DNA of 64,000 bases from an uncultured Ruminococcus sp. (GCA_902795355.1 CADBKZ010000009.1:352-64351); one strand, 5' to 3'. Positions 8,361 to 26,983 are shown, counted from the stretch's first letter. Numbers and translations are program-made. Notes: generated by a model not told the origin, from the letters alone.

Positions 8361-9784
8361 CTCGGTTCCACGCGGTAGGTCGTACCGTCTTTGGTGTCAA
8401 TCAGGGTCACGCCGCGCGCGGCAAGCTCGCTCCGGATGCGGTCGGCTTCCGCGTAGTTTTTGGCGGCCTTGGCGGCGCGGCGCGCTTCGATCTGCGCCTC
8501 GATCTCCCGCGCAAAACCGTCGTCGGCCGCGGGTTCGCCCGTCGGGGCGTTTTGCAGAGCTTTCGCGCCTTCCAGCAGGTTCAGCTGCAAAACCGAATCA
8601 AACTCGCGCAAGAGCGCCAATTTCGTGGCGCCGCCCGCGGGCAGTTTGAGAACGTCGTAAACCGCGGTAACGGCAAGCGAGGTGTTCAGGTCGTTGTCCA
8701 AGGCTTTTACGAAGTTTGCTTTCTGCGCTTCAAACGCCGCTTGATCCACCGCGCCGTCCTCGGAGAGCTGCGCAATTCTGGCAAGCAGCTTCGCGTAGGC
8801 GGTTTTGGCGTTATCCAGATTTTCAAAGGAGAACACCAGCGATTTGCGGTAGTGCGATTGCAGGCAGAAGAAGCGATAGACCATGGGATCATAGCCTTTT
8901 TGCTCCAAGAGCGAGAGCGTGAGAAACTCGCCGCTCGATTTGCTCATTTTGCCCGTGGTAGTGTTCAGGTGGAGCACATGGAACCAATAATTGCACCATT
9001 TATGCCCTAAATAGGCCTCGGATTGAGCAATTTCGTTGGTGTGGTGGGGGAAAGCGTTGTCAATGCCGCCGCAGTGAATGTCGAGCTTTTCGCCGAGGTA
9101 TTTCATGCTGATGCAGGAGCATTCGATATGCCACCCGGGGTATCCCAAGCCCCAAGGACTTTCCCATTTCAGTTCCTGATCGTCGAATTTGGATTTGGTG
9201 AACCATAGCACAAAGTCGGCTTTGTTGCGCTTGTTGCCGTCCTCTTCCACGCCCTCGCGAACGCCCACGGCAAGGTCCTCTTCCTCGAAATTGTGGAACA
9301 CGTAGTACTGTTTGAGCTTGGACGTATCGAAATAAACGTTCCCGCCCGCAAGGTAGGCATAGCCCTTTTCAAGGAGCGAGGAGATCACCTTGATGAAATC
9401 TTCCACGCACCCCGTTGCGGGTTGAACCACCTCGGGGCGGCGGATGTTGAGTTTGCGGCAATCGTCGAAAAAGCAATCGGTATAGAATTTTGCAATTTCC
9501 ATGACCGACTTGTGCTCGCGCTTTGCGCCTTTGAGCATTTTGTCCTCGCCCGTGTCGGCGTCGGACGTCAGGTGTCCCACGTCGGTAATGTTCATCACGC
9601 GGGTCACTCGGTAGCCCGCGTAGCGGAGATAACGGTCGAGGATATCTTCCATCATATAGGTGCGGAGATTGCCAATGTGGGCGTAATGGTAAACGGTGGG
9701 GCCGCAGGTATATAAACTGACCTTGCCCGCCTCGTTCGGAATAAACTCTTCCTTGGTGTGGGAGAGGGAATTATACAGTTGCAT
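8357..9784 (-). CDS. cysS: Cysteine--tRNA ligase
   Basis: MQLYNSLSHTKEEFIP...LYTCGPTVYHYAHIGNLRTY (HIGH motif) and KMSKSSG (KMSKS motif). Confidence 0.95.
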   Translation of the reverse strand: MQLYNSLSHTKEEFIPNEAGKVSLYTCGPTVYHYAHIGNLRTYMMEDILDRYLRYAGYRVTRVMNITDVGHLTSDADTGEDKMLKGAKREHKSVMEIAKFYTDCFFDDCRKLNIRRPEVVQPATGCVEDFIKVISSLLEKGYAYLAGGNVYFDTSKLKQYYVFHNFEEEDLAVGVREGVEEDGNKRNKADFVLWFTKSKFDDQELKWESPWGLGYPGWHIECSCISMKYLGEKLDIHCGGIDNAFPHHTNEIAQSEAYLGHKWCNYWFHVLHLNTTTGKMSKSSGEFLTLSLLEQKGYDPMVYRFFCLQSHYRKSLVFSFENLDNAKTAYAKLLARIAQLSEDGAVDQAAFEAQKANFVKALDNDLNTSLAVTAVYDVLKLPAGGATKLALLREFDSVLQLNLLEGAKALQNAPTGEPAADDGFAREIEAQIEARRAAKAAKNYAEADRIRSELAARGVTLIDTKDGTTYRVEPR

Positions 9785-11498: not shown

Positions 11499-11548
11499 CG
11501 GTTCCGAAAAAATTCAGGAAAAATTCAAATTTTTTTCCGAAAAACCTA

Positions 11549-11576
11549 TTGACAAAACCGGAAAATCTGCTATAAT
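11549..11576 (+). promoter_or_regulatory. Promoter of the riboswitch-controlled cassette
   Basis: TTGACA, 16 nt, TATAAT, about 12 nt upstream of the aptamer. Confidence 0.6.
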
Positions 11577-11587
11577 ATATGGTGGAA

Positions 11588-11662
11588 TTGAATTAAGGGC
11601 AAAGCAGTCGTAAGGCTGTGACGCAAAGCCATAGGGTCCCGAAAGAGACAGCCGGTTGCAAA
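11588..11662 (+). promoter_or_regulatory. c-di-GMP-I (GEMM-I) riboswitch aptamer
   Basis: AAGGGCAAAGCAGUC-GUAA-GGCUGUGACGCAAAGCCAUAGGGUC..GAAA..GACAGCCGGUUGC. It has a GNRA-capped first hairpin, the conserved ACGCAAAGC junction, AUAGGG, and a GCAA/UUGC closing helix. Very close to clostridial class-I examples as I remember them. Confidence 0.85.
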
Positions 11663-11690
11663 CGAAATGTTGCAATCGGTTGTTTTTGTT
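11652..11690 (+). terminator. Riboswitch expression-platform intrinsic terminator
   Basis: CCGGTTGCAA-acgaaatg-TTGCAATCGG (10 bp, one G-U) followed by TTGTTTTTGTTG. The 5' arm overlaps the aptamer 3' closing strand. Confidence 0.75.
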
Positions 11691-11715
11691 GTAAAAAAAG
11701 GAAAGGGGAGGCCGC

Positions 11716-12609
11716 ATGAAAAAGTTTTTGAGCATGTTCAAAAGCGCGCCGAAAGGCAAAGTTGCCAAGTTGGCATACGCGTTTTTCGGAATCATTGTCA
11801 GCGGAGTGATACTGGTTGCGGCAACTACCTCCATGGCGTGGTTTTCCAACAATCAGAGAACCGATGCCAACGCATTGGAACTCAAATCGTTACAGAACGA
11901 TACCACGGCAAGGTATTCGGTTTATAAATGGGATTTTGAAGAAGGCAACATTGCCAATGGGCATGGCACCAATCTGGATAGTGAGTCCAACCCGCTGACG
12001 TTGGAAACCGGATTCTCCCTCAATACGCATGACGTGGTGTTCACCAGCGAAAACCTCTATAACCCCGCATTTGTCCGCATTGAGCTTACGGGAAGCAAAT
12101 ACGAGGGGAAGAGCGGATCGCTTACCGTTAATCTGATTCGTTCCGAAGAATACGACAGCAACGAAACCGTTCTGACCGAAACGCTTTCCAGCGTGGCGCA
12201 GTTTGCATGCACAACCGGGGCGGTTGCATATCTTGATAACGCGGAAACGGTCTATTCCACCGCGTACGGGTTGTTCTGCAACGCGGAAAACGGCAAGCTG
12301 AAAAACAGCGGTCCCTTTGTAAAAAAAGAGTTCACCACCTATGATGTGGAGGAAGAAGGCGGAAATCCCGTCTATTCCAATTTTGAAAAAGTCAACGAAT
12401 TGGAATTTTCCGTGTCCTATAACGCGGAAGACTGGACGGAAGACGGAAAGCTTTATATTTACCTTTGCGTTTGCTATGATGAGATTCTGGCGGAACTTGT
12501 GGCGCGTGGGAATACCGACTTTTCGGCATTTCTCGACCTTGGAACTTCCAAACCGATGACAAACGATCTTTCCGTGATCTACATTTCCTTTAACGAGCCG
12601 ACCCCGTAA
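11716..12609 (+). CDS. Uncharacterised secreted/membrane-anchored protein with a SipW/TasA-like N-terminal signal region
   Basis: RBS GGAAAGGGGAG. N-terminal Lys-rich segment, hydrophobic helix LAYAFFGIIVSGVILVAATTS, then MAWFSNNQRTDANALELKS. Lower G+C than neighbours. No recognisable catalytic motif. Confidence 0.7.
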   Translation: MKKFLSMFKSAPKGKVAKLAYAFFGIIVSGVILVAATTSMAWFSNNQRTDANALELKSLQNDTTARYSVYKWDFEEGNIANGHGTNLDSESNPLTLETGFSLNTHDVVFTSENLYNPAFVRIELTGSKYEGKSGSLTVNLIRSEEYDSNETVLTETLSSVAQFACTTGAVAYLDNAETVYSTAYGLFCNAENGKLKNSGPFVKKEFTTYDVEEEGGNPVYSNFEKVNELEFSVSYNAEDWTEDGKLYIYLCVCYDEILAELVARGNTDFSAFLDLGTSKPMTNDLSVIYISFNEPTP

Positions 12610-12660
12610 TGTTTCGGGATATTCCGTTCCTCGCGCAAAAATCATGAAAGAAAGGAGAAT

Positions 12661-15600
12661 TTGATGATGAGCAGCAAGAAACATTTGGTTGCAATGATCG
12701 CACTGACATTGGCAATGGTCATGACATTGATAGCGACAATGCCAATGGTTTATTCATGGCTGTCCAATCCGACAATTTCGGATGCGAATGTTGACGGAAG
12801 CATCAAAGGATCCTATTTTGAGGACGGAGACGGAAGCGAGGAACACCCCTATATTATCGCGCGCCCCATCCAACTCTATTACCTCGCGTGGCTGCAGGAC
12901 ATCGGATATTTCAACAAGGAAGATGGACAGAACGCGGGACACATGCGGCAGTTCTGGTTTGAATTGCGCAACAACTATACGAAAAGCGGGTATGCCCAAC
13001 CTTTGCCGGGAGCGGTGACCGACGGTATTTTTGATATGACGGAATGGAACCTTCCCCCCATCGGAACCACGGAATTTCCGTTTGTCGGGCATTTTAACGG
13101 CAATGGGCTTGTAGTTGCCAATTTGCATGTAACAAATACGTTTACTTCCTCCGATAAAGCCCCGAAAGAAGGAGAAAGCACCATCGGAACGCAAGCGCTC
13201 GGCTTTTTCGGTGTGGTCGGTTCGGTTGGAACCGCGGGAACCGTTGGCTCGCTTGCATACGATGCCGAGGATAACGGCGTAACCAACATCGTTCTCCACA
13301 ATCTGACGGTTGAAAGCGCCGCGCCGGCAAGCAACCAAACACTTGTTGGGCTTGCGGCCGGGTATGTCAACGCGCCCGTTACGCAAATTGCCGTTAGTGA
13401 AAGCCAAATTACGGTTGCCGATACAGTCACAGGCCCGATCGCGGCGAACACAAACGGAAACGAATCGGACTTTGGATTGGTCGGGTTCTGCACAAGTAAC
13501 TATAAAGAGGACTTGAATGTCGAGCGGGTCACCATCTCGCTCCCAACCTATACGCAGAACGTTCTCTATAAGAAAACGCAGGATGAGGGGCCCGGATTCG
13601 GCGGATCGATCAAAATGCAAACGGTATATGATCGGTTGGTATCCGTATTCAGCAATAATGCCGAATATCCTCAATATGTTGATAAGGAATATTGGACGGC
13701 CAACGAGCAAACAGGGGTGACAACACACCATACGGAGCGCGACGAGACGAACGGAGTCAATCAATCGATTAAAGCGTATAATCCAACGGATGTGGACTAT
13801 TCTTATACATTCAGTACCTATTCGTCGAGTTCCAGTACCACTACCTATATGTATTTGTTCGGCGAGGATACGATTGTTGGGCAGAATGCCTCTTACCCGA
13901 ACACTTCGGGAATTACCAAAACCGTGGAAACAGAACGTTACAAGCGTTTTACAGGTACGGCATATACCATTTCCGCTCCTGTTGCGGTTGCGCGGGACGG
14001 CGGCGGATATACCATTGCATATACAAGCGGTGGCACAACATATTATTTGAACACAAACGGGAGCACCATTTCCGCAGGAACCGATCCTTATGCAGCGACG
14101 GCATGGACGTTGCCGAACAGCGGAAGCACCGGCGCTATTTCCACCACCATTAACGGAACAACCTATTATTTGCGGCGCTCCAATACCACAACGTCTACCA
14201 CATTAGAGGTGACTTCGCAAACTGCAAATACGAACATTTGGTACCGAAACGGAAGCAAATTTTATGTTACCTACAATAGCAGGTACTATTATATTCGTTA
14301 TAGCGGTGGTTGGGGAATTTCCAGTACAAATAGAACGAGTAGCGTTACATCGCTTACTGTTGCCGACGCGCAACAGGAAGTTACGTACTATCTTAATATC
14401 AACGCCGCGGGAACGGGACTCACCTACGGTACCGATGCGGCCGCCGCAACCAAATGGGCGGTTGAAAACTCGTATTACTATACGATTGTCAATGATACCG
14501 TTAAATACTTGAATGCAACGGGCACCACCACCGTAAGCGTTGGCAATACCGCGTCAAGTACATGGACGTATAGTAACAATCGGTTATATTCTTATTATAA
14601 TTACAGTAATCGGTATATTCGGTTTAATAACGGGTGGTCATTGTATAATAGTACCACCTATGCAGCAACCTTTACCCGCACATCGACCACAATGGACGAA
14701 TGGGCGTGGGTTACGGAAACGACCACGGAAGCAAGTAGTTTCACAACCAAGCCCACCTACTTTGCCCTGAACATGTCGAACGCTTTTGCAACAAACGATA
14801 ATAACACGGGATATGTTATCAGCGGCGCCAACTTCAAAAATACAACGGCAAGTAATACGTCGGAACGCTATCCTTCCAAATCGGGTGACATTCGTGTTTC
14901 CGAATACAACATGGCGTTTATTTCCAATTCCCTGCAAAACGGAACGGCATATAACGACGGCGGCATTACCTCTAGTACCACCAATATTACCTATTCGGCA
15001 ACCTATGATAAACGGTTGGAAATCCTGACGGCAGTGCATACAACCTACAACGGAACAACTTATGACGGCTTTTACCGAATTACGGACACGGATTCCAATT
15101 ATAACACAACACACAGCTATGTTAACAGCAAGTTGAGCGGATATACGGCCGTATTGCATTCAACACTGGGGTTGAAACGTTATAGCGATGCAAGAGCGGA
15201 ATTGAGCAGTACTTTTTTGAATTCCAATAAAATTTACGGACTTCACTTTATGGATGCCGTGATCAACAAAAACAATACCGTCACAATTCCAAATGCAAAG
15301 ATCAACGGAGAAACAATCTCCAATTATCAAGTCCCGATCGACTGTATCGACTTCAATGTGAAAAATCGCGGGTTCCTGACGATTTTTGCCGGAACATATT
15401 TTACGGGGAATACTTCGTTTTTCTCGCTTCATGAAATTTTCCGTTATAAGGAAACCGATTCGGAAGTGATTGCGGGAACCAAGCAGGTTAATGATATTAA
15501 GGACATTAAAGAAATATCCAAAATCTATCGGCCACTTTCCGGAACCAACGATTATATCTATCTTTATGCAAACGGTGGGGGATATTCCAAGGAATTAACC

Positions 15601-16911
15601 GCCTCGCAAATCTCCTCGCTGGTGCTTGCTTTCGATATGGATTGGATGACGAATCCGGGAAGCGATTTGATCCCTTATGTGGTGTATTATTTTGAAATCC
15701 CGGTCAACGGCGGCGAATTTGCCCTTGGTTCCGTAGAGGGAAAAGATGGCGCATATCTCTTCTACCTTGATATTGCCGCAAACGGCGGAGCCGCCGAGGA
15801 TAAGGACCGCACCACCGTTGCCGAGCAGTTTACCACCAAGCAAATGACTTTCTCCGTTCCCAAAGGCGTTCAGCTGGTTGCCGGTAAGGATTCCTATCCT
15901 GCTTATACCGATTATAACGTTTATTCCGATTATCTTGATAGTGTTGCCGTCAAACTGTCGGCCGGCTTTACGGGAACCGTTCCATTCAGCCGCACATCGG
16001 AAAATGTATTCAACTTTACGCCAACCGGAACATCCGTCCTGACCTATGTGGGCGGCACCGTAAGCGCCACCACGGGTTTCGGAGGCGAGGAGACTGCGTA
16101 CTATCCGAACGGTTATACCGTCAAGCTGGTAGAAACCATAACCGATGTCGGACGAACGACCGGCAATACCGACCATATGCGATTGGAAACGTTGGACACC
16201 TATAATTCGAGCGGCGTTCGCACGTCCCGTACCGTAACGCTTTATGCGGGGGTGGATTCGGAAGAAAACATTGGGAATATTGTTAAAATCGTTTCCTTTA
16301 CCTATGATCCAACAGGACACGACAGCATGATTACCCGCGTGGTTCGCGCGGCTTCCATCGGCGGATTCAACATTGCTTTCAGCGAGGCGGTAACGATAAC
16401 GGCAACGCTGGAAAATGAAAATGCCCATGTGAACTTTGGTGATAACACTGCCAATGTTCTGATAACACTTTCCGCAGATCAGGCGGTTAGTGACAAGTTG
16501 GTTCCCGCTGTGAATCTGTCGGATGATTCGAATGGATCCAGTCCGTACCGCAAGTCCGCGATCGGTGCAGACTTTGTCAGCTACGATTACTATTATAATC
16601 CTTCCTCGACCGTAACAGCAACAACAGCGCCGACCTTTACGCCGACCAATAACGCGAATGACGTTCTTGACAGTCTCTCTTTGAGTTACGCAATTACATT
16701 GACATCGGTTTCCGCCAACACGGCGATCAAGGTTTATGCAAAACTGTTGCAGCAGTTGTCGCCAACCGCGCTTGCACATACCACATGGGTCAGAACCGCC
16801 GACCAGACAACCACGGAAAGCAAGTCGGTGCCCATCACGGTAACAGGTGTTACGGTCAACGGCAATTCGTTGACGTACAATACGGTTACAACTTTGAATC
16901 TTGGTTCATAA
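12661..16911 (+). CDS. Giant (1416 aa) Thr/Ser/Asn/Tyr-rich secreted protein: N-terminal signal/anchor, GLUG-type beta-helix-like region, tandem lectin-like repeats
   Basis: RBS AGGAG. TM helix LVAMIALTLAMVMTLIATMP then VYSWLSNPTISDANV. GDGSEEHPYIIARPIQLYYLAWL, PPIGTTEFPFVGHFNGNGLVVANLHV, LGFFGVVGS and LVGLAAGYV resemble GLUG/beta-helix adhesin modules. No LPXTG, SLH or choline-binding motif seen. The real start may be ATG 12664. Confidence 0.8.
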   Translation: MMMSSKKHLVAMIALTLAMVMTLIATMPMVYSWLSNPTISDANVDGSIKGSYFEDGDGSEEHPYIIARPIQLYYLAWLQDIGYFNKEDGQNAGHMRQFWFELRNNYTKSGYAQPLPGAVTDGIFDMTEWNLPPIGTTEFPFVGHFNGNGLVVANLHVTNTFTSSDKAPKEGESTIGTQALGFFGVVGSVGTAGTVGSLAYDAEDNGVTNIVLHNLTVESAAPASNQTLVGLAAGYVNAPVTQIAVSESQITVADTVTGPIAANTNGNESDFGLVGFCTSNYKEDLNVERVTISLPTYTQNVLYKKTQDEGPGFGGSIKMQTVYDRLVSVFSNNAEYPQYVDKEYWTANEQTGVTTHHTERDETNGVNQSIKAYNPTDVDYSYTFSTYSSSSSTTTYMYLFGEDTIVGQNASYPNTSGITKTVETERYKRFTGTAYTISAPVAVARDGGGYTIAYTSGGTTYYLNTNGSTISAGTDPYAATAWTLPNSGSTGAISTTINGTTYYLRRSNTTTSTTLEVTSQTANTNIWYRNGSKFYVTYNSRYYYIRYSGGWGISSTNRTSSVTSLTVADAQQEVTYYLNINAAGTGLTYGTDAAAATKWAVENSYYYTIVNDTVKYLNATGTTTVSVGNTASSTWTYSNNRLYSYYNYSNRYIRFNNGWSLYNSTTYAATFTRTSTTMDEWAWVTETTTEASSFTTKPTYFALNMSNAFATNDNNTGYVISGANFKNTTASNTSERYPSKSGDIRVSEYNMAFISNSLQNGTAYNDGGITSSTTNITYSATYDKRLEILTAVHTTYNGTTYDGFYRITDTDSNYNTTHSYVNSKLSGYTAVLHSTLGLKRYSDARAELSSTFLNSNKIYGLHFMDAVINKNNTVTIPNAKINGETISNYQVPIDCIDFNVKNRGFLTIFAGTYFTGNTSFFSLHEIFRYKETDSEVIAGTKQVNDIKDIKEISKIYRPLSGTNDYIYLYANGGGYSKELTASQISSLVLAFDMDWMTNPGSDLIPYVVYYFEIPVNGGEFALGSVEGKDGAYLFYLDIAANGGAAEDKDRTTVAEQFTTKQMTFSVPKGVQLVAGKDSYPAYTDYNVYSDYLDSVAVKLSAGFTGTVPFSRTSENVFNFTPTGTSVLTYVGGTVSATTGFGGEETAYYPNGYTVKLVETITDVGRTTGNTDHMRLETLDTYNSSGVRTSRTVTLYAGVDSEENIGNIVKIVSFTYDPTGHDSMITRVVRAASIGGFNIAFSEAVTITATLENENAHVNFGDNTANVLITLSADQAVSDKLVPAVNLSDDSNGSSPYRKSAIGADFVSYDYYYNPSSTVTATTAPTFTPTNNANDVLDSLSLSYAITLTSVSANTAIKVYAKLLQQLSPTALAHTTWVRTADQTTTESKSVPITVTGVTVNGNSLTYNTVTTLNLGS

Positions 16912-16919
16912 TTTTTCAA

Positions 16920-16941
16920 TCCCCGCCCGTTTGGGCGGGGA
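16920..16941 (+). terminator. GC-rich hairpin just after the giant ORF
   Basis: TCCCCGCCC-gttt-GGGCGGGGA, 9 nt after the stop. No clear U-tract. Confidence 0.45.
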
Positions 16942-17010
16942 ATCCTCAAAAAAGCAACACAAATACGTGGGGACACCGATAGCGGTGCTTCTCCCGAAAA
17001 AAGCAGTTCC

Positions 17011-17178: not shown

Positions 17179-17207
17179 TTGACAAATTAAGGAAAATATA
17201 CTATAAT
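17179..17207 (+). promoter_or_regulatory. Promoter of tRNA-Gly
   Basis: TTGACA, 17 nt, TATAAT, ending 15 nt before the tRNA 5' end. Confidence 0.6.
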
Positions 17208-17222
17208 AATAAGGTAAATTTC

Positions 17223-17296
17223 GCAGATGTAGCTCAATGGCAGAGCGTCCGCTTCCCAAGCCGAAAACGCGGGTTCGATTCCCGTCATCTGCTCCA
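17223..17296 (+). tRNA. tRNA-Gly (anticodon CCC), CCA encoded
   Basis: 74 nt. Acceptor GCAGATG/CATCTGC, D arm GCTC-AATGGCA-GAGC, anticodon loop TTCCCAA, T arm GCGGG-TTCGATT-CCCGT, discriminator U, CCA. One C-C mismatch in the anticodon stem. Confidence 0.85.
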
Positions 17297-26659: not shown

Positions 26660-26846
26660 AAAAAAGTGCAACCGGAAAAGACCGTTCCGGAAGAACGGTT
26701 TTTCGGTTGAACAGGGGTTGTTTTGCGGTTGCCCGCATATTTGAACCTGTTTTAACGATCGGGGGTTCCGACCGGAGAAGCATCCGCCGAATTTTCGATC
26801 ACTTCTCGCCTCGTCAACCGCGCCCGAGGGGCGCGGTCTGGCGCTA
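26660..26846 (-). ncRNA. glmS ribozyme (GlcN6P-dependent self-cleaving leader)
   Basis: Minus strand: AGCGCCAGACCGCGCCCCUCGGGCGCGGUUGACGAGGCGAGAAGUGAUCGAAAAUUCGGCGGAUGCUUCUCCGGUCGG... This matches the conserved core (AGCGCCAGA, GACGAGG, AUCGAAnnUUCGGCGGAUGC). The 3' boundary is approximate. Confidence 0.9.
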
Positions 26847-26983
26847 TTATCACCCGAATTTGCGGGGAACGGCGGTTACCCGCCCCATGCCTGCCGCCGT
26901 TCGTTCGCGGGCAAGGGGCTTTTTTGATTTTGCAAAACGCGGCGCGCTTTGCGAAAACACAGGAAACGCGAGCCGACGGCGGC

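Follow-up and report, generated by a model that had tools for sequence, protein, structure and literature searches.

The 64,000-nucleotide (nt) stretch of DNA analysed here (the window) originates from an uncultured Ruminococcus sp. (GCA_902795355.1 CADBKZ010000009.1:352-64351) and carries on its plus strand a compact cassette, in which a riboswitch of the cyclic di-GMP (c-di-GMP) type I class, or GEMM-I, precedes two open reading frames, ORF1 and ORF2 (Table 1). The promoter, described as near-consensus in a first-pass annotation of the sequence, agrees with the consensus at every position and is kept in two relatives (L001 and L002; L numbers denote the loci collected in this study), and the aptamer begins ~12 nt 3' of it. 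The two reading frames were found as that annotation had drawn them; they are separated by 51-54 nt, and the ATG of ORF2 has a Shine-Dalgarno sequence (AGGAG) 6 nt to its 5' side. The tRNA-Gly(CCC) gene directly 3' of the cassette has a perfect promoter of its own, and a hairpin, which is the probable 3' end or stabiliser of the transcript, follows ORF2; positions 11549-16940 are therefore best explained as a single transcription unit in which a strong constitutive promoter drives ORF1 and ORF2 by way of a c-di-GMP-I riboswitch.

Table 1. Features of the riboswitch cassette and its 3' flank (positions counted from the first letter of the window; residues are given as one-letter codes or numbers)
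Feature	Position	Strand	Details
Sigma-70-type promoter	11549-11576	+	TTGACA-16 nt-TATAAT plus extended -10 TG; 12/12 consensus
c-di-GMP-I (GEMM-I) riboswitch aptamer	11588-11663	+	Rfam RF01051, 59.2 bits vs gathering score 35, E 5e-9
Intrinsic terminator	11647-11693	+	15-bp stem and U-rich tail; GACAGCCGGUUGCAAACGAAAUGUUGCAAUCGGUUGUU then UUUGUUGUA; -21 kcal/mol
ORF1 (S1/S5 superfamily)	11716-12609	+	297 residues; open reading frame with good Shine-Dalgarno sequence
ORF1 predicted signal peptide	within 11716-12609	+	residues 1-41; predicted cleavage between TSMA and WFSN
ORF2 ("BIG"), large exported multidomain protein	12664 (ATG)-16911	+	1415 residues; 1416 from TTG at 12661
ORF2 predicted signal peptide	12664-12756	+	residues 1-31; predicted cleavage between MVYS and WLSN; profile of 147 family N-termini
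ORF2 conserved N-terminal domain	12796-13683	+	~residues 45-340; begins YFEDGDGSEEHPYII; profile match to PDB 3n6z
ORF2 Thr/Tyr/Ser-rich tandem beta-trefoil (lectin-like) region	13915-14733	+	~residues 418-690; Foldseek
ORF2 conserved C-proximal domain	14761-15903	+	residues 700-1080; block with the highest conservation in the family
ORF2 variable Thr/Val/Ser-rich C-terminal region	15904-16908	+	~330 residues; kept in close relatives only
GC-rich hairpin	16921-16940	+	CCCCGCCC-GTTT-GGGCGGGG; found by eye, 10 nt past the ORF2 stop, without canonical U-tract
tRNA-Gly(CCC)	17179-17296	+	own 12/12 consensus promoter (17179-17207); directly 3' of the cassette

The GEMM-I core recognised in the first-pass annotation is borne out by the Rfam covariance model RF01051, whose match spans the full model (positions 1-87); the distal part of P3 is short, which appears as a gap in the RF01051 alignment, and otherwise the aptamer is an ordinary one. 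A custom covariance model (R1), built from 12 diverse matches with the Rfam structure, gave the window aptamer 80.9 bits and found 83 aptamers in the loci collected. Across these 83 related aptamers 96.3% of cells are paired and 13 of 19 pairs show compensatory changes, in an alignment that was fitted to the model and so favours the structure; none of 500 shuffles reached the observed covariation score, and slid controls paired at 22-38%. In alignment A5 (83 aptamers, from L004-L083 and the window) columns 11, 38 and 113 are occupied by G, A and C in the window aptamer; from the base-pairing register we take these columns to be the Vc2 ligand contacts G20, A47 and C92. The full-length match, the conserved ligand-contact positions and the covarying helices are all as in the known Vc2-type aptamers of RF01051, and the novelty lies in the regulated genes only. 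The position-20 equivalent (column 11) is A rather than G in 39 of the 83 regulon aptamers, the window copy having G, and the choice between A and G shows no clean split by downstream gene family.

An intrinsic terminator after the aptamer had also been proposed, and it is present; a simple pattern scan missed it because its stem is long and its U-run interrupted. The terminator's 5' arm (GACAGCCGGUUGCAA) is formed by the 3' strand of the aptamer's second hairpin and the bases after it, so that it overlaps the final 17 nt of the aptamer match, 11 nt of them in the paired 3' strand. In the unconstrained minimum-free-energy fold of the leader the terminator forms at the cost of this second hairpin, and therefore an aptamer stabilised by its ligand would have to block termination; the geometry predicts an ON switch. 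Without c-di-GMP, the leader would fold into the terminator and transcription would halt before ORF1, and with c-di-GMP bound, the aptamer would keep the shared strand, no terminator would form and both genes would be transcribed. Of the 83 related aptamers and the window copy, 41 have a terminator that shares 5 nt or more with the aptamer's paired 3' strand, and another 16 have one that begins at or just past the aptamer. Judged from these sequences, ON-type anti-termination is the common design in the regulon, though not the sole one.

The first-pass annotation had pointed out that both proteins start with a hydrophobic helix followed by a shared W-[FL]-S-N..D-A-N motif. The motif is present in both, directly after the helix (WFSNNQRTDAN in ORF1 and WLSNPTISDAN in ORF2), but it is not a signature of unknown kind: it is predicted to combine the c-region and the mature N-terminus belonging to a SipW/TasA-class type-I signal peptide. 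This prediction is based on 147 N-termini of families S1, S5, S2, c19 and BIG aligned on their invariant Trp. They show K/R at -24 to -22, an unbroken hydrophobic stretch from -21 to -6 with a 17-residue h-region, T/S/A at -3 in 94% and A/S/G at -1 in 97% of the members (the regular expression by which the N-termini were selected fixed -1 and the residue after the Trp, leaving -3 and the h-region free), and, after the cut, W in 100%, then F/Y/L, with N at +4 and V at +7 frequent when numbered from the Trp. Positions -3, -1 and +1 are S, A and W in ORF1 and V, S and W in ORF2, whose Trp (W32) is invariant in the family. TasA is cleaved between GGGTWA and AFND, and with its mature N-terminal segment each subunit donates a strand to its neighbour; for ORF1 and ORF2 we predict cleavage by analogy at the sites given in Table 1. 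Both products would thus leave the cell via Sec and be cut after a small residue just before the invariant Trp, resulting in a conserved mature N-terminus.

The only meaningful NCBIfam model recurring among the 147 N-termini is TIGR04088 ("SipW-dependent-type signal peptide"), a very short model that matches six of them (best E 4.4e-6); one S5 member scores 14.4 bits against its cutoff of 19. The signal peptidase (SPase) genes of the related loci, 28 in number and spread over 20 loci, all match both TIGR02228 (archaeal-type signal peptidase I) and the SipW model NF046067. A class III signal of the type IV pilin or archaellin kind was considered and rejected, as only two of 52 S2 members gave a weak Arch_flagellin match, the conserved motif stands after rather than before the hydrophobic helix, and the co-encoded peptidases are of type I.

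The claim that neither protein carries a recognised catalytic motif, and that both are uncharacterised, agrees with a scan of Pfam and NCBIfam, in which no family was found for ORF1 or ORF2, and with PDB-profile searches and Foldseek searches on AlphaFold2 models, which place neither in a characterised family. An exhaustive profile search with ORF1 collected 186 representatives at 50% clustering, all of about 260-310 residues, and within the S1/S5 superfamily, to which it belongs, S1 is homologous to S5 (hhalign 99%, E 3e-18, 242 columns). Its close relatives are few; all of them lie between a flavin reductase/nucleotidyltransferase pair and an aquaporin gene, each with a riboswitch. The ORF1 model (built with 20 sequences; predicted local distance difference test score, pLDDT, 73; predicted template-modelling score 0.68) suggests an N-terminal helix that runs through residue 44, a disordered stretch around the predicted cut and, beyond it, a beta-sandwich that includes a few helices. 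Foldseek returned no PDB structure below E 1e-3 for this model, the weak matches being carbohydrate-binding modules, adhesin domains and Eph-type jelly-rolls.

ORF2 was correctly described as Thr/Ser/Asn/Tyr-rich (T 14.1, S 9.5, N 7.9 and Y 7.3%), a bias that is strongest in residues 340-700 (T 20.8, Y 11.1 and S 11.1%). Residues 30-1130 were modelled with 52 sequences at a pLDDT of 83. The profile of the conserved N-terminal domain matches the first ~100 residues of PDB 3n6z, deposited as "putative immunoglobulin A1 protease" (E 3.3e-5), and no Pfam family was found for this domain among 60 members. The whole 1101-residue model gave poor global scores in Foldseek, and its high-probability matches are all beta-trefoils: the RyR N-terminal domain (0.94), IL-1beta (0.91), fascin (0.80) and the PSL lectin (0.60). 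Three members of the family are matched by the fascin family PF06268, and the profile match to the beta-trefoil lectin SeviL is marginal (E 0.017). In the model the middle repeats thus appear as beta-trefoils, at the level of fold only; in this they resemble beta-trefoil lectins (ricin-B/CBM13-like, fascin, SeviL), sequence similarity to which is marginal. The following block, residues 700-1080, holds the near-invariant motifs NTGY, GDIRVS, YGLHFM, IDF, FFSLH, YYFEIPVNxGEYALGS and GAYLxYLD and is confidently modelled as a beta-rich fold, for which no Pfam family in 61 members and no meaningful sequence relative in PDB was found. Sortase anchoring of ORF2 was rejected: neither an LPXTG motif nor a C-terminal hydrophobic anchor occurs in any of 120 ORF2-family proteins, and ORF2 itself ends in ...TTLNLGS. 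Overall, ORF2 is best explained as a large extracellular protein without a recognised catalytic domain.

A survey for further occurrences of the riboswitch together with the gene pair, which the first-pass annotation had called for, revealed the two-gene cassette as the minimal core of a larger and widespread regulon. There are at least 222 homologues of ORF2, with 174 loci in species-representative genomes; the hosts, from rumen and gut, belong to Lachnospiraceae, Ruminococcus, Erysipelotrichaceae and uncultured Bacilli and Clostridia, and the window itself recurs on cattle-rumen metagenome scaffolds. Strains of the culturable Ruminococcus albus have S1-BIG (L070 and L073). Eighty ORF2-family loci were fetched and their ORFs clustered. 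In 51 of these 80 loci there are 80 aptamers, about one per 13 kb, and the first gene past the aptamer belongs to S5 (19 cases), S1 (17), S2 (13), BIG (7), T8 (6), EAL (5) or SPase (3). The core of the regulon consists of an aptamer, a gene for a protein of 250-310 residues (S1 or S5) and BIG. A gene of the S1, S5 or c19 family lies directly upstream of BIG in 44 of the 54 BIG genes with enough upstream sequence, and an aptamer is found within 2.6 kb upstream on the same strand in 33 of the 54, a degree of conservation well above what chance would give. The aptamer is kept in relatives with 49-77% ORF1 identity and ahead of an ORF2 relative of 44% identity, and down to 49% ORF1 identity the cassette keeps its place between cysS/NTP-transferase and aquaporin/guaA genes. 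Because the ORF1-type gene is almost always directly upstream of the ORF2-type gene, we infer that ORF1 is a dedicated partner of ORF2, be it an anchor, an adaptor or an assembly factor.

Fuller operons are exemplified by the order riboswitch, T8, S2, S2, riboswitch, S1, BIG, SPase, M7, c10, SPase in loci L037, L038, L043, L068 and L077. Two additional groups of small secreted proteins, S2 and T8, are related by a shared C-terminal W-x-EG-x-D-x-x-C block, and S2 resembles S1 in the signal region only. M7 has transmembrane segments as well as a McrB-like AAA+ domain (PDB McrB, E 5e-6; PADLOC candidate PDC-M26A, E 4.6e-41), and c10 is a DUF2357-type protein. The SPase-M7-c10-SPase module was observed 3' of BIG in L019, L037, L038, L043, L050, L053, L062, L068, L077, L082 and L095; M7-c10 looks like a membrane-tethered McrBC-like pair placed between two SipW-type peptidase genes, sometimes with a c-di-GMP riboswitch of its own. 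Genes for EAL phosphodiesterases (cluster c9) were seen at the head of several operons (L037, L040, L061, L063, L072, L077 and others), in five cases directly after the aptamer, and GGDEF-HAMP-Cache cyclases (c12) flank other loci, which suggests that c-di-GMP feedback is built into the regulon. The window contains no homologue of SPase, M7, c10, T8 or S2, and these accessory genes are absent within 10 kb in the 64%-identity relative.

Some aptamers of the regulon deserve mention in their own right. Two to four c-di-GMP-I aptamers in a row stand before some operons (L077:226-751, L090:2380-2573, L092:2142-2329 and L030:1605-1822), an arrangement that could sharpen the dose response. In the fully syntenic relative L093, with a BIG of 64% identity, the aptamer position (8882-8950) scores 26.9 bits with R1 as against 77-89 elsewhere, and the riboswitch may be decaying or divergent in this lineage.

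The first-pass annotation had proposed a second-messenger-switched secreted fibre, matrix or adhesin module. Of this proposal, the predicted export and the linkage to the riboswitch are upheld, while a role as fibre, matrix or adhesin continues to be inferred, from the lectin-like folds, the SipW-type genomic context and the c-di-GMP logic. On these grounds, the reading we prefer (with a probability of roughly 60%) is that a giant lectin-like protein and its small partner, induced by c-di-GMP and exported by a Sec/SipW-class route, constitute the core of an adhesive or matrix structure. The tandem beta-trefoils of ORF2 would most likely bind glycans of plant fibre, mucus or other cells, ORF1 and ORF2 together would form the core of the induced structure, and in other genomes SipW-type peptidases and further small secreted subunits would be added to it. 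Several observations weigh against this reading. The N-termini of ORF1 and ORF2 give no match to TIGR04088, and a SipW-type peptidase gene is missing from the 64 kb window and, over a distance of 10 kb, from the closest relatives (64%-identity relative). ORF1 shows no detectable resemblance to TasA, camelysin or BsaA in sequence or fold, so that a TasA-like fibre is no more than a possibility; 26 of the 84 leaders have no simple terminator, and the control mode is thus not uniform across the family; the block of residues 700-1080 holds near-invariant His, Asp, Glu and Arg residues that could be catalytic; and every functional statement made here is computational.

More tentatively, the cassette can be viewed as the core of an unrecognised extracellular apparatus of gut and rumen Firmicutes, a possibility to which we give rather less than even odds. 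A c-di-GMP-riboswitch regulon would then export S1/S5, S2, T8 and BIG via dedicated SipW-type peptidases, the conserved W-F N-termini would drive assembly (possibly by donating a strand, as TasA does in its fibres) into a fibre or matrix with the giant lectin as its tip or decoration, the membrane-tethered McrBC-like GTPase pair would assist, and the riboswitch-controlled EAL phosphodiesterases would tune the response.

The near-invariant residues of ORF2 (R744, H861, D896, E1011, E1018 and D1036) are one reason to consider that it might instead be a secreted enzyme, polysaccharide-degrading or proteolytic, with the beta-trefoils as carbohydrate-binding modules and the whole cassette serving a c-di-GMP-induced degradative function. 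Such a role would suit a rumen organism, as glycanases of the rumen commonly carry beta-trefoil carbohydrate-binding modules, and the N-terminal domain does match a protein deposited as a putative IgA1 protease. On the other hand, no glycoside-hydrolase, lyase or peptidase family was found in the 61 and 60 members examined for the two conserved blocks, nor in PDB profile searches, and an obligate small partner gene, together with the SipW-type peptidases and the paralogous small secreted proteins of the fuller operons, would be atypical of an enzyme locus; we consider the enzymatic alternative unlikely, if the strongest of those at hand. Somewhat less probable still is that the N-terminal helices remain uncleaved, which would make ORF1 and ORF2 type-II membrane-anchored surface proteins with the conserved W-F at the membrane interface. 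The want of a dedicated SipW-type peptidase in the window and near the closest relatives would be explained, as would the question of what holds ORF2 on the cell, for which it has no other anchor, and the modelled ORF1 helix does extend to residue 44, beyond the predicted cut. However, the small residues prevailing at -3 and -1 of the family are the signature of signal-peptidase I substrates, the motif yields matches to the SipW-substrate model, and each of the 28 co-located peptidases is of the SipW type.

The riboswitch could also be thought to act as an OFF switch, to work at the level of translation, or to respond to another dinucleotide such as 3'3'-cyclic GMP-AMP (3'3'-cGAMP). An A at position 20 is reportedly tied to 3'3'-cGAMP sensing in GEMM-Ib aptamers of Geobacter, and it is this base that 39 of the regulon aptamers have; the related leaders without a simple terminator likewise speak for some other control mode. 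But positions 20 and 92 of the window copy are G and C, its terminator competes directly with an aptamer helix, which fits ON logic only, and the ribosome-binding site of ORF1 lies 20 nt past the terminator and is not sequestered in the leader fold. A different logic or ligand for the window copy is therefore very unlikely.

The preferred reading, a c-di-GMP-induced adhesive or matrix structure, invites comparison with two groups of known systems. Among Firmicutes, c-di-GMP riboswitches control the Bc2-collagen adhesin of the B. cereus group and CD2831/CD3246 and pilA1 of C. difficile. As there, a c-di-GMP-sensing leader would gate a surface or adhesive protein, with high c-di-GMP favouring attachment. 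Yet the known adhesins are sortase-anchored (LPXTG) or type IV pilins, whereas the ORF2 family lacks LPXTG and any C-terminal anchor and has a SipW-class signal; in addition, both proteins of the cassette are, unlike those adhesins, without a family assignment. SipW-dependent matrix systems are represented by tapA-sipW-tasA of B. subtilis, CalY of B. cereus and sipW-bsaA of C. perfringens. In these, as in the related loci described here with their 28 peptidase genes, the gene for a specialised archaeal-type signal peptidase I accompanies those of substrates with a common, conserved signal and mature N-terminus, and substrate N-termini of the related loci resemble TIGR04088. The differences are that ORF1, S2 and T8 are unlike TasA, camelysin and BsaA in sequence and fold, that the known systems are under protein regulators (SinR; BsaR/S) and not a riboswitch, and that they include neither a 1400-residue lectin-like protein nor a McrB-like ATPase, while the window itself has no sipW. 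Homology of ORF1, S2, S5 or T8 to TasA, camelysin (Peptidase_M73) or BsaA was rejected, no Pfam, NCBIfam or PDB-profile match having been obtained; TasA is also absent from the Foldseek list of ORF1, and only the analogy of the signal peptide was retained.

The gating of adhesins by c-di-GMP riboswitches is already established, and so is the service of SipW-type peptidases to matrix proteins, for example in C. perfringens, where SipW is needed to export BsaA, which forms extracellular polymers (PMC7395162). What appears to be new are the regulated protein families, which are undescribed, the combination of a c-di-GMP riboswitch with SipW-class substrates, and the breadth of the regulon in gut and rumen Firmicutes. 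In line with the first-pass view that the cassette does not fit the characterised c-di-GMP regulons, the literature search, which left most subscription-journal papers outside its reach, returned no paper tying a c-di-GMP riboswitch to the ORF1 or ORF2 proteins or to a SipW-type system, and no description of the protein pair was found in Pfam, NCBIfam or PDB. c-di-GMP signalling is well mapped in Proteobacteria and a few Firmicutes pathogens, but little is known of its outputs in the dominant Clostridia, Lachnospiraceae, Ruminococcus and Erysipelotrichaceae that degrade fibre or live as commensals. For these bacteria the loci collected here offer a single conserved output module, built wholly of proteins without family assignment, which is a testable candidate for the means by which they switch to adhering to plant particles, mucus or one another. 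The loci also supply ~80 natural c-di-GMP riboswitches, for the most part of the ON type and with a simple terminator as platform, and they would extend the SipW-type secretion paradigm to new substrates.

A phage or other mobile origin of the cassette was rejected as well. A collection of 2.9 million viral contigs yielded three loci only, of which two lie on contigs >220 kb; synteny is kept to 49% ORF1 identity; and neither ORF1 nor ORF2 gave a PADLOC match, a meaningful PHROG match or a whole-protein viral fold match. The two large contigs (IMG/VR, 223 and 237 kb; L090 and L092) carry BIG-family matches with tandem riboswitches and could be bacterial contigs wrongly classed as viral, or else mobile elements of very large size. 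The GC content of the cassette, which adjoins the tRNA-Gly gene, is 43-50% against 54-61% in its flanks (window positions 11500-17000). This may result from the Thr/Asn/Tyr-rich coding content rather than from recent transfer, and the cassette with its distinct GC is still syntenic over the same range of relatives. Rfam matches in the 64 kb window are three only, namely the c-di-GMP-I aptamer, a tRNA and a glmS ribozyme on the minus strand (26699-26856; RF00234, 83.9 bits), which presumably lies ahead of glmS, as it does in the syntenic locus L093.

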